Shown here in pieces: positions 2,970 through 11,294 of a stretch of DNA of 64,000 nucleotides. Source of the stretch: Longimicrobiales bacterium (GTDB lineage Bacteria; Gemmatimonadota; Gemmatimonadetes; Longimicrobiales; Gaopeijiaceae); the NCBI GenBank assembly GCA_965238005.1, contig OZ250165.1, positions 4,448,001 through 4,512,000 on the forward strand. Direction: 5' to 3'. Within the stretch, counting starts at the first letter, position 1; each line of letters starts with the position of its first letter. Below the pieces are notes generated by a model that had not been told where the DNA came from, did no database searches, and saw only the letters and a list, made by a program, of their open reading frames with translations. Made by a program: the position numbers and the translations under genes.

Positions 2970-3264
2970 GCGGGACTGCTCCTCCGAGGGGACAGGCGCG
3001 GGCGTGCGCGCAATCAGAATACTCCGGCACGCTCGGCGGGGATAGTCCGACCTCACGGACTTTTCATGGAGATCTGATGGGGGGCGCGTAGCGGGTCCGG
3101 ATCATCACCCCCCCCCCCTTTCCGGGGAGGGTCCGCTAAGACCCTGCAAGGTCCGGTACGCGGGTAACGAATCGGGTAACGCGACAGGCAAAGTTCGGGT
3201 CTACAAAAAAGGTGGTCACCGAATCGGGAATGCCCGATGTGCCGTAAGTCGCTGTGCTATAAAG

Positions 3265-3347
3265 CGGAGCCGGTGGGATTCGAACCCACACACCCTCACG
3301 GGCGCCGGTTTTCGAGACCGGTGCAATACCAATTATGCGACGGCTCC
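3265..3347 (-). tRNA. tRNA-Ser(CGA)
   Basis: Cloverleaf with CCGGT-CT CGA AA-ACCGG anticodon arm, long variable arm and GGTTCGAATCC. Confidence 0.95.
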
Positions 3348-3358
3348 AAACGTCGCAA

Positions 3359-3381
3359 TCAGTCGGGGCGCCCGGATTTGA
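3359..3381 (-). repeat. 23-bp duplicate of the tRNA-Pro(CGG) 3' end (att-like scar)
   Basis: tcagtcggggcgcccggatttga is identical at 3359-3381 and 3507-3529. Confidence 0.85.
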
Positions 3382-3510
3382 GCTGCGGTCGCCCTCGGCG
3401 ATCCTCGCTCGTCTCGGCGGTCAGCTCCTAGACCGCAGAGCGGATCACACCAAGTCGCCTCGGCTGAACCTCCCGCTCAAACCCGGAAAAACCCAATCTG
3501 TTTTCCTCAG

Positions 3511-3584
3511 TCGGGGCGCCCGGATTTGAACCGGGGACCTCTGCGTCCCGAACGCAGCGCTCTACCGGACTGAGCCACGCCCCG
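3511..3584 (-). tRNA. tRNA-Pro(CGG)
   Basis: CTGCG-TT CGG GA-CGCAG anticodon arm. Confidence 0.95.
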
Positions 3585-3715
3585 AATTCTACCATTAAGC
3601 GCCCAGAAACCGCGTTCCTACGGGACGCGTGGGCCATCCTACTCCTAGCGGAAAGGGGTGGGAGTGTACTCGAACCGAATCACACAACGCCCGCGGTGGC
3701 CTCGTGTACTCCAAG

Positions 3716-3800
3716 CGGACGGGGTGGGATTCGAACCCACGTGGGCTATCAACCCACACGATTTCCAATCGTGCGCCTTAAGCCGCTCGGCCACCCGTCC
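3716..3800 (-). tRNA. tRNA-Ser(GGA)
   Basis: CACGA-TT GGA AA-TCGTG anticodon arm; long variable arm. Confidence 0.95.
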
Positions 3801-3846
3801 AGTTGTCAGTGAAGAATCCCACGTCCAACGCATTCAAGTACCTAAG

Positions 3847-3930
3847 CGGAGGGAGTGGGATTCGAACCCACGCGGACTTGCGTCCAACGCCTTAGCAGGG
3901 CGCCGCCTTAAGCCACTCGGCCATCCCTCC
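3847..3930 (-). tRNA. tRNA-Ser(GCT)
   Basis: CT GCT AA anticodon loop; long variable arm. Confidence 0.95.
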
Positions 3931-3937
3931 CAACAAG

Positions 3938-4010
3938 TTGCCCCTCTAGGGCTCGAACCTAGACTCTCCGGAACCAGAATCCGGCGTGTTGCCAATTACA
4001 CCAAGGGGCA
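3938..4010 (-). tRNA. tRNA-Gln(CTG)
   Basis: CCGGA-TT CTG GT-TCCGG anticodon arm. Confidence 0.95.
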
Positions 4011-4016
4011 TCTGAG

Positions 4017-4090
4017 AGCCACCTGTCGGAATCGAACCGACGACCCCGTCATTACGAGTGACGTGCTCTACCAGACTGAGCTAAGGTGGC
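4017..4090 (-). tRNA. tRNA-Thr(CGT)
   Basis: CGTCA-CT CGT AA-TGACG anticodon arm. Confidence 0.95.
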
Positions 4091-4096
4091 AAGCAG

Positions 4097-4169
4097 TGGA
4101 GCCGAGGGGAATCGAACCCCTGACCTCAGCATTGCGAACGCTGCGCTCTCCCAACTGAGCTACGGCCCC
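4097..4169 (-). tRNA. tRNA-Ala(CGC)
   Basis: CAGCG-TT CGC AA-TGCTG anticodon arm; G3:U70 pair. Confidence 0.95.
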
Positions 4170-4213
4170 CGACCATATCGGCCACTCGGCGTGTCCGCCA
4201 AGGGCCGCCAAAA

Positions 4214-4287
4214 TGGGCGCGAGAGGACTCGAACCTCTGACCTCTACGATGTCAACGTAGCGCTCTAACCAACTGAGCTACGCGCCC
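4214..4287 (-). tRNA. tRNA-Val(GAC)
   Basis: CTACG-TT GAC AT-CGTAG anticodon arm. Confidence 0.95.
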
Positions 4288-4297
4288 GGTCCCCTCC

Positions 4298-4335
4298 TTG
4301 TACTCCAACTTTGTACTCCAACTTTGTACTCCAAC
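4298..4335. repeat. Three tandem 13-bp repeats (ttgtactccaact) at the tRNA-Arg 3' end
   Basis: Copies start at 4298, 4311 and 4324. Confidence 0.9.
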
Positions 4336-4409
4336 ACGCCCGGAGGGACTCGAACCCCCGGCCTCCTGATCCGTAGTCAGGCGCTCTAATCCAACTGAGC
4401 TACGGGCGC
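4335..4409 (-). tRNA. tRNA-Arg(ACG)
   Basis: CTGA-CT ACG GA-TCAG anticodon arm. Confidence 0.95.
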
Positions 4410-4460
4410 AAACAAACAAACTGCAATACAGACGGTCTCGAAGACCACTCCTTTTCATCA

Positions 4461-4571
4461 GGCGACTTTGGTGCGGCGGTAGGAGGGCAAGGCGACCCGA
4501 CTGAGGCGTACACTCGTACGCCGCAGGGAGGGGAGACCGCAGTCCCGACACCGCGCTGCGCCAAAAGCGCC
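4461..4571. repeat. Imperfect palindromic REP/MITE-like spacer element
   Basis: Outer arms ggcgactttggtgcggcggt / accgcgctgcgccaaaagcgcc and an inner gcgtac-actc-gtacgc hairpin. Confidence 0.55.
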
Positions 4572-4580
4572 CGTGAAAAG

Positions 4581-4664
4581 TGCCCACGACAGGACTCGAA
4601 CCTGTACGCCGTTTCCGACACTGGTCCCTCAAACCAGCCTGTCTACCAATTCCAGCACGTGGGC
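4581..4664 (-). tRNA. tRNA-Leu(GAG)
   Basis: CTGGT-TT GAG GG-ACCAG anticodon arm; long variable arm. Confidence 0.95.
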
Positions 4665-4696
4665 GCTCTGTCGGACCGAACCGAGCCGAGCAGAAA

Positions 4697-4781
4697 TGCT
4701 CGGGGAGGGACTCGAACCCTCACGGGGTTAACCCCCACAGGGTCCTGAACCCTGCGCGTCTACCAATTCCGCCACCCGAGC
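4697..4781 (-). tRNA. tRNA-Leu(CAG)
   Basis: CAGGG-TT CAG GA-CCCTG anticodon arm; long variable arm. Confidence 0.95.
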
Positions 4782-4794
4782 CCGATCTGCACAG

Positions 4795-4867
<73 letters not shown>

Positions 4868-4906
4868 CGCACAATCAACCTGTGAGATGTCAAACAGCGT
4901 CTCCAG

Positions 4907-4981
4907 CGGGGCTGACGGGACTTGAACCCGCGACCTCCGGTGTGACAGACCGGCACTCTAACCAAGCTGAGCTACAGCCCC
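4907..4981 (-). tRNA. tRNA-Asp(GTC)
   Basis: CCGGT-CT GTC AC-ACCGG anticodon arm. Confidence 0.95.
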
Positions 4982-5025
4982 AAACGTCTACCGCGTCCGG
5001 ACCCCTGGTCCGGTGTCCTGCACCA

Positions 5026-5097
5026 TGCCCCCACGGGGAATCGAACCCCGATCTCCACCTTGAAAGAGTGGTGTCCTAGCCGCTAGACGATGGGGGC
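5026..5097 (-). tRNA. tRNA-Glu(TTC)
   Basis: CCACT-CT TTC AA-GGTGG anticodon arm. Confidence 0.95.
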
Positions 5098-5113
5098 GCA
5101 CTCCCCTGCCCAA

Positions 5114-5186
5114 CAGGCCCGGAGGGACTCGAACCCCCAACCCCCGGTTTTGGAGACCGGTGCTCTACCAGTTGAGCTACGGACCT
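5114..5186 (-). tRNA. tRNA-Trp(CCA)
   Basis: CCGGT-CT CCA AA-ACCGG anticodon arm. Confidence 0.95.
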
Positions 5187-5224
5187 CTGTTGTCCCGCGA
5201 CCGCAGAGGCGATCGGTGCATCAG

Positions 5225-5297
5225 TGGCCAGGGGCGGAATCGAACCACCGACACCGCGATTTTCAGTCGCGTGCTCTACCAACTGAGCTACCTGGCC
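5225..5297 (-). tRNA. tRNA-Phe(GAA)
   Basis: CGCGA-CT GAA AA-TCGCG anticodon arm. Confidence 0.95.
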
Positions 5298-5300
5298 GAC

Positions 5301-5335
5301 AAAAAAACCGCCCGGGCCTCTCGGCTACAGACGGT
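5301..5335 (-). terminator. Intrinsic terminator just upstream of tRNA-Phe
   Basis: ACCGTCTG-TA-GCC-GAGA-GGC-C-CGGGCGGT stem followed by a T run. Confidence 0.6.
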
Positions 5336-5466
5336 CTGACGAAGGGTGCGCGCTCGAAGTTTCTAGCGGCTCCCCTCGACCGCCCACGGTCGCAGGCTAG
5401 ACCACGTATCGGCCATCGTCCAACCCCGGGCCTGCTTGGCATCCGTCTGGAACATCGACCGACTCC
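5301..5466 (-). ncRNA. Candidate structured leader/attenuator RNA inside the tRNA operon
   Basis: Helices CAGACGG/CCGTCTG, GCAGGC/GCCTGC, GACCG/CGGTC and AGGG..CGCT/AGCG..CCCT. The closing helix overlaps the 5' arm of the terminator. Confidence 0.45.
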
Positions 5467-5493
5467 CTGAAAGCTGAATGGCCAGCACGTGGA

Positions 5494-5515
5494 AACGCCG
5501 CCCGAAGGCGGCGTT
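5494..5515 (-). terminator. UUCG hairpin after tRNA-fMet (weak terminator or processing hairpin)
   Basis: AACGCCGCC-TTCG-GGCGGCGTT with only a short T tail. Confidence 0.5.
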
Positions 5516-5524
5516 GTCAGCAAG

Positions 5525-5598
<74 letters not shown>

Positions 5599-5610
5599 CT
5601 GTAAAGCAAA

Positions 5611-5639
5611 AAGATATTGGAGATCGCGGAAAGGTTCAA
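5611..5639 (-). promoter_or_regulatory. sigma70-type promoter of the tRNA operon
   Basis: TTGAAC-17 nt-TATCTT, ending 12 nt upstream of tRNA-fMet. Confidence 0.6.
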
Positions 5640-5708
5640 CCCCGATCCTCGTACCTCAGAAGTGCTAGTTTAACCCACTCGCCGAACAGCACCTCGAGAG
5701 GTGAGACG

Positions 5709-7172: not shown

Positions 7173-7246
7173 CGGGACGTGGCGCAGCTCGGTAGCGCAC
7201 CTGAATGGGGTTCAGGGGGTCGCCGGTTCGAATCCGGCCGTCCCGA
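7173..7246 (+). tRNA. tRNA-Pro(GGG), likely integration site
   Basis: CCTGA-AT GGG GT-TCAGG anticodon arm; the integrase ends 28 bp downstream. Confidence 0.95.
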
Positions 7247-7273
7247 CTGTGGAGGTGATTGCCCCGCTTGATG

Positions 7274-8509
7274 TTACAGCATCAGGCGGGGTTTTGCGTT
7301 TGTCCCAAAAGTGGGACTTGTGCCTTTTCGTGTGCCTTTTCGTGCGCCATTCTGGCACTCTTTCCGGCGTTCCAACGCCCCTCGGAGTTTGTCTTCGTCG
7401 GGTCGTTGGTAGCACTTGATGACGGTCTCGATGTCCCGCCAGCCACCCAACTGGCACACCACACTGAGGGGCTCCTCATGGAGATCGGTGGCGAACTTCC
7501 TCCGGAGCGAGTGCCATCCCCGCCCTGGTTTCCGCTCGAGCCCGGCCCTCACCTCCGCCCGCCTCCACCAGTTCCTGAGCAGATAGCGCCCCACGGGCCT
7601 CGCAGGGTCCTTGGGCGCCGGGAGCACCGGGGAGTCACCGATGCCAGGGCCATGCACTCGAGCCTCCTCAAACGCGACCCTGGCGTCCTCCGTCATCGGT
7701 GTGACGTGGGCATAGCCCGTCTTCTCAGACTCAGCACGCCAGTGGATGCTCGCCCCTTCGAAGTCGAGGTCGGACCACCGGAGCACCCGGATGGCGCCGA
7801 TCCTGTGGCCTGTTTCGTGCGCCAGGATCAGCGCAACACGGAACCTCCAGTCGACCTCACCCGCGACGCCGAGCAAGACCGAATACTCATGAGCAGTCAG
7901 GGTAATACGCCTCGGGTTCTTCTCTTTCGGCAGGCGGTACCCCTTGAGGGGGTCCCGCTCAAGCAGCACTCCACCGTGGCCGTCCCCTGCCATGGTTGCC
8001 CACGTGAGCACCGACCTCAGGTAACTCAGATCCTTCTGGACGGTGCGGGTGGCCACCGGCTCCCACTGCCCGGGCCGTGGTCCAATACGACCCGATCCAC
8101 GGTCCCGGATGAATCCATCCCAGTCCCTCCTGTTCAGCGTCGTTGCTCGACGATCCGGACCGAAGTACCGGACAAACATGTCCGCCGCCTTGCGGTCGTA
8201 TTGCTGATGACGCTCCCCGTTTCTCGGGGTCACCTCACCTAGGTATATGTCAAACAGCTCTTGGAGCGTGAGCTCCGGCGGAGCCTCCTCGATCACGGAC
8301 TCCGCTCTTGCGAGCTTGGCCGCAACCTCGTCAGCCTTACGCTTCGCCTTCTCGCGGTCGGAGTGACCCAGGGCGATGCGCTTCCGCTCACCGTCGTCCC
8401 GGAACTCGAGGGTCAGTGATCCTCCCGGCCGCTCGAAGATCCGAACACGGTTCCTGCCCTTCTCGCCGGACAGGTAGCTCCATCCCTTCCTTGTGCGTCT
8501 GGCCATCAT
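7274..8509 (-). CDS. Tyrosine recombinase/integrase
   Basis: Catalytic R (TGHRIG), HSLRR, LGGW in place of LGH, and KCY tyrosine. Confidence 0.9.
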   Translation of the reverse strand: MMARRTRKGWSYLSGEKGRNRVRIFERPGGSLTLEFRDDGERKRIALGHSDREKAKRKADEVAAKLARAESVIEEAPPELTLQELFDIYLGEVTPRNGERHQQYDRKAADMFVRYFGPDRRATTLNRRDWDGFIRDRGSGRIGPRPGQWEPVATRTVQKDLSYLRSVLTWATMAGDGHGGVLLERDPLKGYRLPKEKNPRRITLTAHEYSVLLGVAGEVDWRFRVALILAHETGHRIGAIRVLRWSDLDFEGASIHWRAESEKTGYAHVTPMTEDARVAFEEARVHGPGIGDSPVLPAPKDPARPVGRYLLRNWWRRAEVRAGLERKPGRGWHSLRRKFATDLHEEPLSVVCQLGGWRDIETVIKCYQRPDEDKLRGALERRKECQNGARKGTRKGTSPTFGTNAKPRLML

Positions 8510-8886
8510 TGGTCTCCTGCTCTGATGGCAGATTGCACGACCTCCGTCCGTGAAATCTGGAGGTTCTGGGGGTGCCGTACCACCCCTGCCCTGACCGGCA
8601 GGTCTCCTCGGGCGATCCGGGGAGCTCCAGGCCTACCAGCGTTCGCGATCCTTCCCTCTCGGACGAGGCGCCCGAGGTGGTCTGTAGAGTACCCGCTGAG
8701 GTCGGAGGCCTCGGTGAGGGTCAGGGGGGCGTCGGCTCCCTCGCGGAGGGCTTTCTCGAGGGCGTCAGCGCATTTCTCGTAGGCGAGGGCCACGGAGGTC
8801 TCCTCGTGCTCTCGAAAGAGCCTACTCCTATCGCGCCACTCCTCAGGGAGGTCAGCGGGGAGCACGGGGCCGTTGGCGGACTTCAC
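8506..8886 (-). CDS. Excisionase-like winged-HTH DNA-binding protein
   Basis: LTLTEASDLSGYSTDHLGRLVREGRI; overlaps both neighbours by 4 nt. Confidence 0.65.
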   Translation of the reverse strand: MKSANGPVLPADLPEEWRDRSRLFREHEETSVALAYEKCADALEKALREGADAPLTLTEASDLSGYSTDHLGRLVREGRIANAGRPGAPRIARGDLPVRAGVVRHPQNLQISRTEVVQSAIRAGDQ

Positions 8887-11294
8887 GACCCCACCTCCTC
8901 GTCCTCCGTCGCCGACTCATCCACTAGATCAAAGAGGTCGGCGACGTTCTCGACGCGACCGCCGTGTCCGGCCCGCCACCCGGGAATAGCGTAGTACCTG
9001 TGCCGGTTCCCAGTGCGCCTGTTCTCGATGGCTCCACGGTGGATCAAATCACGAACAGCTTCCTGTTTGGCACCGTTACGACCCTCGACACGGTCGCGGA
9101 TGTGTTGCGCAGCACAGCCCGGCTCGCTCTCAATGAACTGGAACACACGTGCGAGAAGGGAGAGCTCTCTTGGGACGTCCACGAGCTCGACCACGGCGCT
9201 CGCAAAGAGAGTTGGTTCACTGTCGTCTGTGGTCGTCAGCGACAGACCCGTAAGCCCCTTCAGACGGAAGCCGAGCGGCAGAGGTTTGTGGCCGCCGTCC
9301 CGCATCTTCCGTGTCTTGAGGGTCATGGGGTTGCCGCTATCGAGAGCTTCCCTCGTGCCTTTGATCACATAGGAGAAGTCCAGGCCCTGTTCCCAGGCCG
9401 AAGCCCCCCGTAGGCGGTCGCTGTCGCCGTATCCCACGTGGTGCGTGAAAAGAGACGTGCAGTCAGTTTCGGCTGCAAACCGTGAGAGTAAGCCAGTGAT
9501 GGCGTTGGCAGTGTCGTTGTCATTCTCCGACTGCTCTGCCCCTAACGTTTTTCCGAGCGTGTCGATGATGACGAGGCCAGCGCCGGTCTGATTGATTGTG
9601 TTGATCAATCCGGTTTCAAAAACCGGGTCGTCGAACCGAGGCGGGTACTCGCTGATTATGACACGGCCCCGAAGCACCTCCTCCATCTCGGCGAGCGTAG
9701 CACTCTCGCGTAGGTACCCGTGTTCAACCAACCAGCCGAAAATCCGCTTTGGGAAGTCGCGATTTCCCTCGGCGATTAGAAAAATGACGGGCTGCTGCGT
9801 CGTCTCGGACCCGAGCCAGGGCCGCCCGAAGGCGACCGAGCATCCCAGGTCGATCACCAGCCAGGTCTTCCCAAGAGAGAAATCTGAGACGATGGCGCCA
9901 ACGCCAGCAGCGGGGATGCGCCCGTCGACGAGGTACCGATCTTCCAATCGGATGTCCTTTATATTTAGGGCTCGGAGAACGGGCACCCCGTCAGCATCGC
10001 GCACGAAGGCGGCCCGCCCATTGGATGGCTTGACCGAGTTCAGTACATCCTGCGCCCCCTGCCTGCCCAGAAGGTTGTCCAACTTGCGGGTCAAGGCGGC
10101 TTCGGCGAGCGTGCGCTCCCGATGATCCAACGTGGGGAGCATCGCCAGCACCCGGTCACTCGTGTCCAGTGCTGTCGCCAGTGAGTTCGGACCGAGCTGC
10201 CCAATCAGCTTAAGCGCGGTGGACAGGGCGTCAGAGCAGCATGCAGGGCCCTCCGTAGCCTCTGGAGCGTCCTGGTCAGCCTCAAACAGCCCTTGAATCT
10301 CCTCCACCCTCTCTTGGGAGAGTTCCTCCTTGAGGGTGTCCTCCCCAACCTTGAAGCCCTGCCCCCGTAGCCACTTCCACCCGATCTCGAATGGGGGTTT
10401 GAGACTATCCCATGTCCTCTCCACGAGATCAGGATCGTTCTCGCCCCCCTTCCAGCGGCCGGAAAAGTCCTGAAACATCTCAAGCCCTGCGATCACGTCG
10501 TCCTGGGCCGCCGCCCGGATCGCGATTCCAAACCTGATCCACTCGTCGCGGGTCTCGTACGTGTTCGGGATCCGGGCAATGAGCTCCTCGAGCTCCTTGA
10601 TCGAGGGGGCCTTGAGGTCCTCCTGCGGAGGCGCCTCCTTCACTCTCCCGTCCCCCACGATCTCGACGTCGAAGCCCTCGTCGCGAAGAAGGGTCGCGAG
10701 GTGCTCGAAGAAAGCCTGAGCGCTCACCCTGCTCACCCACGGGAGGGTCTCCGGGTCTACCTCCCAGAGCGGGGCGCCCTCCCATCCATAGTCGACCCCG
10801 GAGGGGTGACGGCCGTGGATGAGGTACTGGCGGCCCTTGCCGAGCCACTCGATCTCTGCCGATTCGTCTCCCTTCCGGACCTTGAGGACCATCTTGGGGA
10901 AGGGCTCCTTCGTCCGATAGACGAGGAGGCCGCGAGGGTGGCGCGAGGTCCGGTAGGGCGACGGCCCGAAGGAGGACTCGGCCTCCTTGCGGACCAACTG
11001 CGTCAGCTTCTCGAAGTCAGAGTCGATGTCCAGAGCTGGGAAGCGGTTACCGAGGAGACCAATGTTCGCCCTCCACTCGTCGATGGTGGCGGGGTCGATG
11101 CTCTCCTTCGTGAAATTGTAGCCCCGCCACCCGTGGGGTCCCATCTCACCAGGACATTTCCCGCGCTGGCCGGGGTCTATCTTAGAGTACGGTGAAAGGT
11201 CACCGTCCGGTGGGATGACGGAAACGAGCTCTGTGTAGCCTCTGTTGTAGAGTTTGGTCGCGACGTCGTTGTCGCGGCGTGTGTTGTGAGACAT
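8883..11294 (-). CDS. Bifunctional Prim-Pol + PriCT-2 + AAA_25 (RepA-like) primase-helicase
   Basis: ALDID and HPSG..Y.W (Prim-Pol); RDEWIRFGIA (PriCT-2); Walker A SDFSLGKT, Walker B VIIDTL, HHVG and LRGAS. Confidence 0.85.
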   Translation of the reverse strand: MSHNTRRDNDVATKLYNRGYTELVSVIPPDGDLSPYSKIDPGQRGKCPGEMGPHGWRGYNFTKESIDPATIDEWRANIGLLGNRFPALDIDSDFEKLTQLVRKEAESSFGPSPYRTSRHPRGLLVYRTKEPFPKMVLKVRKGDESAEIEWLGKGRQYLIHGRHPSGVDYGWEGAPLWEVDPETLPWVSRVSAQAFFEHLATLLRDEGFDVEIVGDGRVKEAPPQEDLKAPSIKELEELIARIPNTYETRDEWIRFGIAIRAAAQDDVIAGLEMFQDFSGRWKGGENDPDLVERTWDSLKPPFEIGWKWLRGQGFKVGEDTLKEELSQERVEEIQGLFEADQDAPEATEGPACCSDALSTALKLIGQLGPNSLATALDTSDRVLAMLPTLDHRERTLAEAALTRKLDNLLGRQGAQDVLNSVKPSNGRAAFVRDADGVPVLRALNIKDIRLEDRYLVDGRIPAAGVGAIVSDFSLGKTWLVIDLGCSVAFGRPWLGSETTQQPVIFLIAEGNRDFPKRIFGWLVEHGYLRESATLAEMEEVLRGRVIISEYPPRFDDPVFETGLINTINQTGAGLVIIDTLGKTLGAEQSENDNDTANAITGLLSRFAAETDCTSLFTHHVGYGDSDRLRGASAWEQGLDFSYVIKGTREALDSGNPMTLKTRKMRDGGHKPLPLGFRLKGLTGLSLTTTDDSEPTLFASAVVELVDVPRELSLLARVFQFIESEPGCAAQHIRDRVEGRNGAKQEAVRDLIHRGAIENRRTGNRHRYYAIPGWRAGHGGRVENVADLFDLVDESATEDEEVGS

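Follow-up and report, generated by a model that had tools for sequence, protein, structure and literature searches.

A conserved translated leader between tRNA-fMet and tRNA-Phe as a putative ribosome-mediated attenuator inside a core tRNA operon of Longimicrobiales

Control of bacterial tRNA synthesis is understood mainly at the level of the promoter. For amino-acid genes, regulation by a translated leader peptide is textbook knowledge, with trpL, hisL, ilvL and pheM-pheST as the classical attenuators. Among the papers listed by searches of the open-access literature, neither attenuator or leader-peptide control of tRNA genes nor such elements in Gemmatimonadota were found described. In the pheL-pheA attenuator the outcome follows a 2:3 antiterminator logic (PMC3082878). 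The uORF of whiB7/wblC is reported to give an intrinsic terminator on efficient translation and an antiterminator on slow or absent translation, and its mixed codons to sense several amino acids (10.1101/2023.06.02.543512). Here we describe the spacer between tRNA-fMet and tRNA-Phe of a Longimicrobiales bacterium, which, judged from comparative sequence data and folding models, is very probably a conserved, translated, ribosome-mediated transcription attenuator inside a core tRNA operon.

The window, i.e. the whole stretch of DNA that was analysed, comprises 64,000 nucleotides of contig OZ250165.1 (assembly GCA_965238005.1). On its minus strand all parts of the layout given in the original prediction (promoter, tRNA-fMet, UUCG hairpin, element, tRNA-Phe) were found, the promoter by its match at 8 of 12 positions, and the 16 tRNA genes downstream of tRNA-fMet were confirmed (Table 1). 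These genes follow each other in the order Phe, Trp, Glu, Asp, Ala, Leu, Leu, Arg, Val, Ala, Thr, Gln, Ser, Ser, Pro, Ser, which is the same in relatives of the Longimicrobiales family, and the array holds the sole genomic copy of several anticodons (e.g. Phe-GAA, Ala-GGC, Leu-GAG, Val-GAC and Ser-GGA). Comparison of the four CAT-anticodon tRNAs of the genome revealed initiator features only in the tRNA-fMet of the operon, which we therefore take to be the only canonical initiator tRNA gene. The spacer measures 226 nt, of which the switch element occupies ~170 nt. The TTGAAC-17-TATCTT sequence is the probable operon promoter: relatives carry better -35/-10 matches than the window at the same place, and only one further 8/12 site, a weak one at 4201, occurs within 3201-5700. 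Neither this promoter, which lies below the threshold of the tool, nor the spacer terminator was among the calls of a consensus scan. A hairpin like the UUCG hairpin follows tRNA-fMet in most family relatives, as judged by eye, and may act as a pause, a weak terminator or a processing element.

Table 1. Features of the tRNA operon and of its switch, in window coordinates.
Feature	Position	Strand	Basis or remark
Candidate sigma-70-type promoter	5611..5639	-	-35 TTGAAC, 17 nt, -10 TATCTT; 8/12 match
tRNA-fMet(CAT)	5524..5598	-	ARAGORN and Rfam
UUCG hairpin after tRNA-fMet, 9 bp, short U tail	5494..5515	-	-17.7 kcal/mol
Shine-Dalgarno site AGGGAG	5463..5468	-	7 nt before leader start codon
Leader frame, 30 aa: MFQTDAKQARGWTMADTWSSLRPWAVEGSR	5363..5455	-	relatives' spacers and translation
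Conserved codon strip W12-T-M-A-D16-T-W18-S19	5399..5422	-	codon conservation, pN/pS
Hairpin 1:2 (5392-5387 with 5382-5377)	5377..5392	-	GACCG/CGGTC stem; competes with antiterminator
Predicted antiterminator 2:3 (5385-5378 with 5329-5336)	5329..5385	-	-30.8 kcal/mol
Terminator-shaped hairpin 3:4 with 7-T run 5307-5301	5301..5337	-	hairpin 5337-5305, -15.9 to -18.3 kcal/mol
tRNA-Phe	5297-5224	-	first gene 3' of switch
16 tRNA genes 3' of switch	3264..5297	-	Phe at 5297 to Ser at 3264

Several further features were noted in and around the array. Between tRNA-Asp and tRNA-Ala lies an 11-nt motif (4898-4888, minus strand) that looks boxA-like to us; it recurs almost exactly in the rRNA leader, ~180 nt before the 16S gene at G000:C1:1577235, and a looser version was found in 12 of 85 loci (some loci were short). 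A 13-nt unit is repeated three times between tRNA-Arg and tRNA-Val (4335-4298, minus), and the 169-nt Leu(GAG)-Arg(ACG) spacer (4579-4411, minus), which measures 80 nt and 181 nt in two genomes of the same genus, contains an imperfect inverted repeat. About 150 nt downstream of tRNA-Pro(CGG), a 22-nt copy of its 3' end (3380-3359, minus) resembles the scar of a lost integrated element. On the other side of the operon, genes for a tyrosine integrase (7274-8509) and then a PriCT-2/AAA_25 primase-helicase (8883-11294) come after a plus-strand tRNA-Pro(GGG), and the region 7173-11294 is probably an integrative element. The distance from tRNA-Pro(GGG) to tRNA-fMet is ~1.6 kb in the window, with a DinB-family gene in between, and ~240-1400 nt in several relatives. 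A second array at G000:C1:1035994-1037821, with 17 predicted tRNAs, among them Ile(AAT) and divergent copies of Trp, Asp and Met, looks foreign.

A 30-codon leader frame, absent from the original prediction, runs through the element. The anti-Shine-Dalgarno sequence CCUCC is present at the 3' end of the genome's 16S rRNA, and the relatives' spacers have a short frame with a Shine-Dalgarno site in the corresponding place. Conservation was assessed in 213 fMet-Phe spacers, 169 of them distinct and 125 of these at least 180 nt long; some of these spacers stem from a search that made the terminator (its 3' arm) a condition. Of the 125 distinct long spacers, 111 contain D-x-W followed at the expected distance by a stop in the same frame, compared to none of 125 on the reverse strand and 0-2 in each of 20 dinucleotide shuffles. 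In total 113 spacers could be anchored on D-x-W, from which one with an early stop and one that was mis-anchored were removed to give the 111; the stop lies 12-13 codons after W in 100 of the 113. A Shine-Dalgarno-like site with a start codon was detected by a loose pattern in 105 of the 111 motif-bearing spacers.

The conserved motif reads W-x-x-[AST]-D-T-W-S and is followed in frame, usually 12-13 codons on, by the stop. D and W served as selection criteria; at the positions that were left free, the 111 spacers have W(-6) in 95, Ala, Ser or Thr(-3) in 108, T(-1) in 104 and S(+1) in 108. Synonymous codons are used in the motif (Asp GAT/GAC; Thr ACG/ACC/ACA; Ser TCN in 64 and AGY in 44), and all three stop codons occur. 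Over the eight codons of the strip pN/pS was 0.43 in frame, compared to 0.94, 1.40 and 1.13 when other frames were tested; it was 0.79 when restricted to codons -6 to -3 and 0.91-0.94 in the flanks. An RNA hairpin enclosing the motif found no support as the cause of its conservation. Variants exist in which the second Trp is replaced by Arg (loci L164-166, L196, L260/261 and L283/284) or D-T is changed (L217, and L179-181, a genus in which W is kept), and in L269 the stop comes two codons after W. Searches of Pfam, NCBIfam, solved structures and the ESM Atlas with the leader peptide gave nothing useful, only two chance-level matches. A profile search of 1.84 billion proteins returned 17 matches, all with the leader motif, from a library without genomic context; in three of them translated tRNA-fMet sequence stands in front of the leader peptide.

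Three helices can form in the element, and according to folding they are mutually exclusive. Segment 2 lies inside the leader frame, and 2:3 continues as a long hairpin that has the stop codon close to its tip; the core stem of hairpin 3:4 contains two G-U pairs. For comparison, alignment A1 was built from 57 representatives at <85% identity, minus two without a clear T run. In the remaining 55, 77.8% of cells were paired for 1:2, 78.5% for 2:3 and 86.4% for 3:4. On percentage paired and covariation score, all three helices exceeded 500 shuffles and slid registers, with the qualification that relatedness inflates covariation scores and that part of A1 was selected by the terminator 3' arm. For 1:2 none of the 500 shuffles reached the observed pairing. 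Helix 2:3 had 27 cells with both sides changed and was unmatched by any of the 500 shuffles on three of five measures, while on the two that count pairs or pair types shuffles were as high in 216 and 111 of 500. In 3:4, 8 of 11 pairs showed two-sided change, so that the intrinsic terminator that the original prediction had recognized by its shape and T run is also backed by covariation over the 55 representatives. RNAalifold on A1 recovered the terminator only. Taken together, the arm partner conserved inside the reading frame and the codon-level conservation point to a translating ribosome, and not to a ligand-binding RNA, as the most likely sensor.

The effect of ribosome position was modelled with an assumed footprint, no pairing being allowed as far as 13 nt from where the A-site codon begins. 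While the A site lay between W-6 and W+1, the mean terminator probability of the 55 representatives was 0.43-0.56; it rose to 0.77 at W+2, 0.88 at W+3 and 0.97 at W+4, and stayed at 0.97-0.98 from there on. Since this rise comes just after the motif, the predicted switch point is where conservation of the peptide ends. In transcripts cut before segment 4, segment 3 was held by upstream RNA in 53 of 55 with the ribosome at W and in 11 of 55 at W+4; truncated transcripts without a ribosome held it, and thus favoured the antiterminator, in 54 of 55. In the full-length equilibrium fold of the window the terminator is present even with a ribosome at W18, so antitermination in the window would have to be kinetic, with 2:3 forming first.

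Two poly-Cys leaders of the same genome behaved alike in this model: both lost the antiterminator once the ribosome was a few codons beyond the Cys run. Their stops lie 48-49 nt from the T run, compared to 55 nt in the tRNA-operon leader, and their sensor-to-stop geometry equals the W-to-stop distance of this leader. The model thus suggests that ribosome-coupled attenuation operates in the organism, usually with a geometry of 12-13 codons between sensor and stop. Poly-Cys leader frames with terminators are located at G000:C1:1719361, 1719640, 1745169 and 1745448 (plus strand) and 3870879 (minus strand); an identical repeat of the pair 1719361/1719640 lies at a distance of 25.8 kb and may reflect a duplication or an effect of assembly.

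From these data the following course of events can be proposed. A single transcript would begin before tRNA-fMet, and a ribosome would load on the leader behind the polymerase. Once past the W-x-x-[AST]-D-T-W-S strip, this ribosome would cover segment 2, the terminator would form and only tRNA-fMet would be made. Delayed at or before the strip, which presumably is the sensing and stall window, it would allow 2:3 to form before segment 4 is made, and the array would be transcribed. We consider it rather likely, on comparative and modelling grounds, that a ribosome held up in the leader, most probably by shortage of the tRNAs that the array encodes, causes the attenuator to open the 16-tRNA array. 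Trp, Asp and Phe codons would be the best reporters, because their core tRNAs lie only in the array.

To describe the codon content of the leaders, array-read codons were assigned by wobble rules. In 49 leaders, from the start to W+1, 70% of 1365 codons are array-read, compared to 50% off-frame, 52% in the long ORFs of the genome and 43% after the switch; these tests are post hoc, use a baseline of one genome and draw on relatives that are not independent. The share is 401 of 456 among motif codons and 23 of 29 in the window's own leader. Distinct substitute codons stay array-read in 44 of 58 cases in the motif, while the flanks give 169 of 302 (post hoc Fisher test, p 0.005). The enrichment is partial, as ACC, GTG and ATG are common in the motif though read by tRNAs from outside the array, and a weaker enrichment of the same kind is seen in the flanks. 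In ten leaders of a sister family with a larger array, 88% of 252 codons are read by that array, compared to 71% off-frame. Its array adds tRNA-Gly(GCC), and 14 of its 16 leader Gly codons are GGC or GGT, compared to 43 of 98 in the window's family. Codons read only by the extra tRNAs of the sister family are no commoner in its leaders (19/252) than in those of the window's family (108/1365).

As part of the collection required the terminator, the motif was counted anew in 123 loci picked by their tRNA genes, namely 14 family loci with both tRNA genes plus 30 returned and 80 fetched loci (the latter two sets from 138 matching genomes), less one duplicate. The full motif was present in 86 and a variant in six by the script's rule, with three more recognized by eye. 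At the level of genera of one Longimicrobiales family (n = 48), the same rule gave the full motif in 37, only a variant in two and none in nine. Many of the nine frameless genera keep a hairpin and T run before tRNA-Phe, and named Longimicrobium records have spacers of 48-58 nt with a hairpin and T run only. In the genera without leader represented by L043-L060, L150-L151 and L158-L161, a different long hairpin with a T run precedes tRNA-Phe, and these hairpins often begin with letters matching the 5' end of tRNA-Phe. In the sister family, 12 of 30 loci were judged by eye to carry a related leader, its motif being D-[SA]-W or a variant. In 30 loci of another family of the same class, one of them with only 39 nt upstream, no tRNA-fMet was found upstream of tRNA-Phe. 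The Longimicrobium records and the loci of this other family include two loci, L017 (G025) and L250 (G293), from genomes marked unpublished; each is a single row among many, and no conclusion depends on either. Named relatives with tRNA-Phe and terminator, among the 80 of 89 loci listed, are almost all Gemmatimonadota, many of them Longimicrobiales.

A pattern scan of metagenomes that did not require a tRNA gave 37 matches, of which 23 lie before tRNA-Phe, all with in-frame D-T-W; the other 14 are without the Asp and look like chance. No gene context besides tRNA-Phe was found for the leader among the 37. RNA data comprised 21 runs with small shares, and contigs were obtained from four, all of other organisms, which are distant relatives. 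One assembled RNA contig of such an organism, at depth 2.4, spans the leader frame with 14 differences; it is silent on transcript ends and expression.

Within the same attenuator, the motif might act as a nascent-peptide arrest sequence, with a ligand-dependent stall (by free tryptophan as in TnaC, by a metabolite or by a ribosome-targeting antibiotic) inducing the tRNAs; we regard this as unlikely, yet still a candidate role, since the residue positions are fixed, in a way that for D, T and S suits a nascent-peptide motif no less than a strip of codons. Both the identity of the residues and their spacing persist in 37 genera, Ser being encoded by both codon families, and conservation stops at the predicted switch point. 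The two positions limited to Ala, Ser or Thr also resemble, as we take it, a chloramphenicol stalling context. The W-x-x-x-D spacing is that of W12 and D16 in TnaC (PMC10941005), whereas I19 and P24 before the stop have no counterpart and the stop follows 18-19 codons after the first W. Against an arrest peptide speak further that no match to solved nascent chains or families was found in the searches above, that substitutions track array-read codons, and that the distance from W to the stop is the same as in the poly-Cys leaders of the genome.

Were the leader instead a plain tryptophan-starvation attenuator, a scarcity of Trp-tRNA would stall the ribosome at UGG, and the remaining residues would be passengers. 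Leaders contain on average 2.3 Trp codons, with at least two in 43 of 50, tRNA-Trp is the second gene behind the switch, and the variant genus L179-181 keeps W while changing D-T. However, the leader has no tandem run of one regulating codon: the motif Trps stand six apart in a mixed strip, and outside the motif Trp codons are not enriched (1.9% vs 1.5%). D, T and S are conserved about as much as W, the lineages with W replaced by R retain the rest of the motif, and the window's genome leaves no space before trpE or trpS for a Trp-rich leader, even though 211 of 221 family genomes carry trpA. The lack of tandem Trp codons, the W-to-R lineages and the leaderless trpE and trpS make a pure Trp sensor improbable.

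A gauge of general translation stress of the whiB7 type, in which any delay or failure in the leader opens the array without codon specificity, would agree with the truncated untranslated RNAs, 54 of 55 of which favour the antiterminator in folding, the window's own untranslated fold being different. The whiB7 uORF is described to work in this way (10.1101/2023.06.02.543512), and a cyanobacterial tRNA operon is reported to be induced by ribosome-targeting antibiotics (PMC8421152). Such a gauge leaves the invariant eight-codon strip and the bias towards array-read codons unexplained, and as the sole explanation it appears quite improbable; it can nevertheless be compatible with sensing of array tRNAs.

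The original prediction pointed to an ON-type attenuator or a free ncRNA, considered here as a ligand-binding riboswitch or free ncRNA with a three-stem fold and CAGACGG (5449-5443) as the antiterminator. This sequence is indeed complementary to the 5' arm of the terminator, and in the window's genome the duplex is as stable as that of segment 2 (-12.5 vs -12.6 kcal/mol); a terminated leader RNA would moreover be released and could act in trans. The CAGACGG helix is, however, not conserved: at least seven Watson-Crick pairs are possible in only 2 of 55 representatives, both same-genus genomes are mismatched, and the mean longest run is 4.4 compared to 6.8 for segment 5385-5378. The upstream GCAGGC/GCCTGC stem found no support either (96 of 500 shuffles reach the observed pairing; mean z -0.12). 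The three-stem multi-branch fold is not supported; its GACCG/CGGTC stem corresponds to the covarying hairpin 1:2. Conservation follows a codon pattern, and Rfam 15 covariance models matched tRNAs only, and nothing in the spacer, at the gathering threshold and at E<=10, with no match to a known metabolite riboswitch or T-box. No second copy of the spacer in the 4.84-Mb genome was found by blastn, and the leader-peptide profile over its six frames gave a best other E of 0.24, which speaks against the dispersed repeat that had also been considered. Thus the proposed switch that uncouples initiator from elongator tRNAs is upheld in its terminator and antiterminator by conservation and covariation, while its framing as riboswitch or free ncRNA is very doubtful. 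Equally doubtful is the view that a leaky, constitutive terminator, or a processing hairpin, fixes the initiator:elongator ratio beside a vestigial frame: it would fit the hairpin and T run kept by frameless lineages, which indicate that the leader is dispensable and that hairpins of this kind may leak or take part in processing, but in most genera the frame, the stop position, the motif and two competing helices are under selection.

Returning to the preferred reading, in which a ribosome delayed by shortage of array tRNAs opens the array, termination is probably partial, since in frameless lineages the array must be expressible past the hairpin. The chances seem about even that this free-living lineage autoregulates its core tRNA pool, with a strip of codons for its own tRNAs gating 16 elongator genes while the initiator is always made. 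If such self-regulation is true, the strip would co-evolve with the tRNA content of the array; the motif may also be a new arrest-peptide motif. Coupling of decoding speed to transcription of tRNA genes would, if true, be a new mechanism for adjusting the supply of tRNA to the demand of ribosomes, and the switch would set the ratio of initiator to elongator tRNA. With a ~170-nt element and more than 100 natural variants, including losses, sensing of tRNA shortage in cis is directly testable.

Compared with known systems, the spacer resembles the classical attenuators in its short translated leader, its segments 1-4, the choice between 2:3 and 3:4 and a stall that frees segment 2; exclusive helices 1:2, 2:3 and 3:4, with a ribosome at the stop codon covering segment 2, were found by computation. 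As the tRNA-operon switch would, pheM-pheST controls the supply of charged tRNA rather than of amino acid. The spacer differs from the classical attenuators in that its targets are 16 tRNA genes and not biosynthetic or synthetase genes, in that it lies inside an operon after a tRNA gene and has no tandem codon run, and in that the untranslated RNA is predicted to read through and not to terminate. Because two defining features, tandem codons and amino-acid genes, are absent, the leader is a variant rather than a member of this class.

The other systems, as described in their sources, each share some properties of the spacer. The whiB7/wblC leader has in common with the tRNA leader a mixed-codon uORF and, as far as folding predicts for the tRNA leader, a terminator on efficient translation and an antiterminator otherwise, but it controls a transcription factor, is Ala-rich and is described without a fixed W-x-x-x-D-T-W-S strip. 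TnaC shares W12 and D16 in both numberings; where it has I19 and P24 before the stop, the leader has S19, W24 and a stop at codon 31, and termination is Rho-dependent in TnaC whereas an intrinsic terminator is predicted here (PMC10941005). The T-box riboswitch ties a choice between terminator and antiterminator to tRNA status (PMC2494555), as the leader would, but it binds tRNA directly, while the spacer has a conserved reading frame instead and gave no Rfam match to the T-box motif or stem I at the gathering threshold or at E<=10. The trn operon of Anabaena is a functional parallel, a tRNA operon induced on translation challenge (PMC8421152, PMC10272220), but with a different mechanism; it is a horizontally spread spare array under the repressor TrcR, whereas the operon of the window is core, vertically conserved and contains a putative cis-acting leader.
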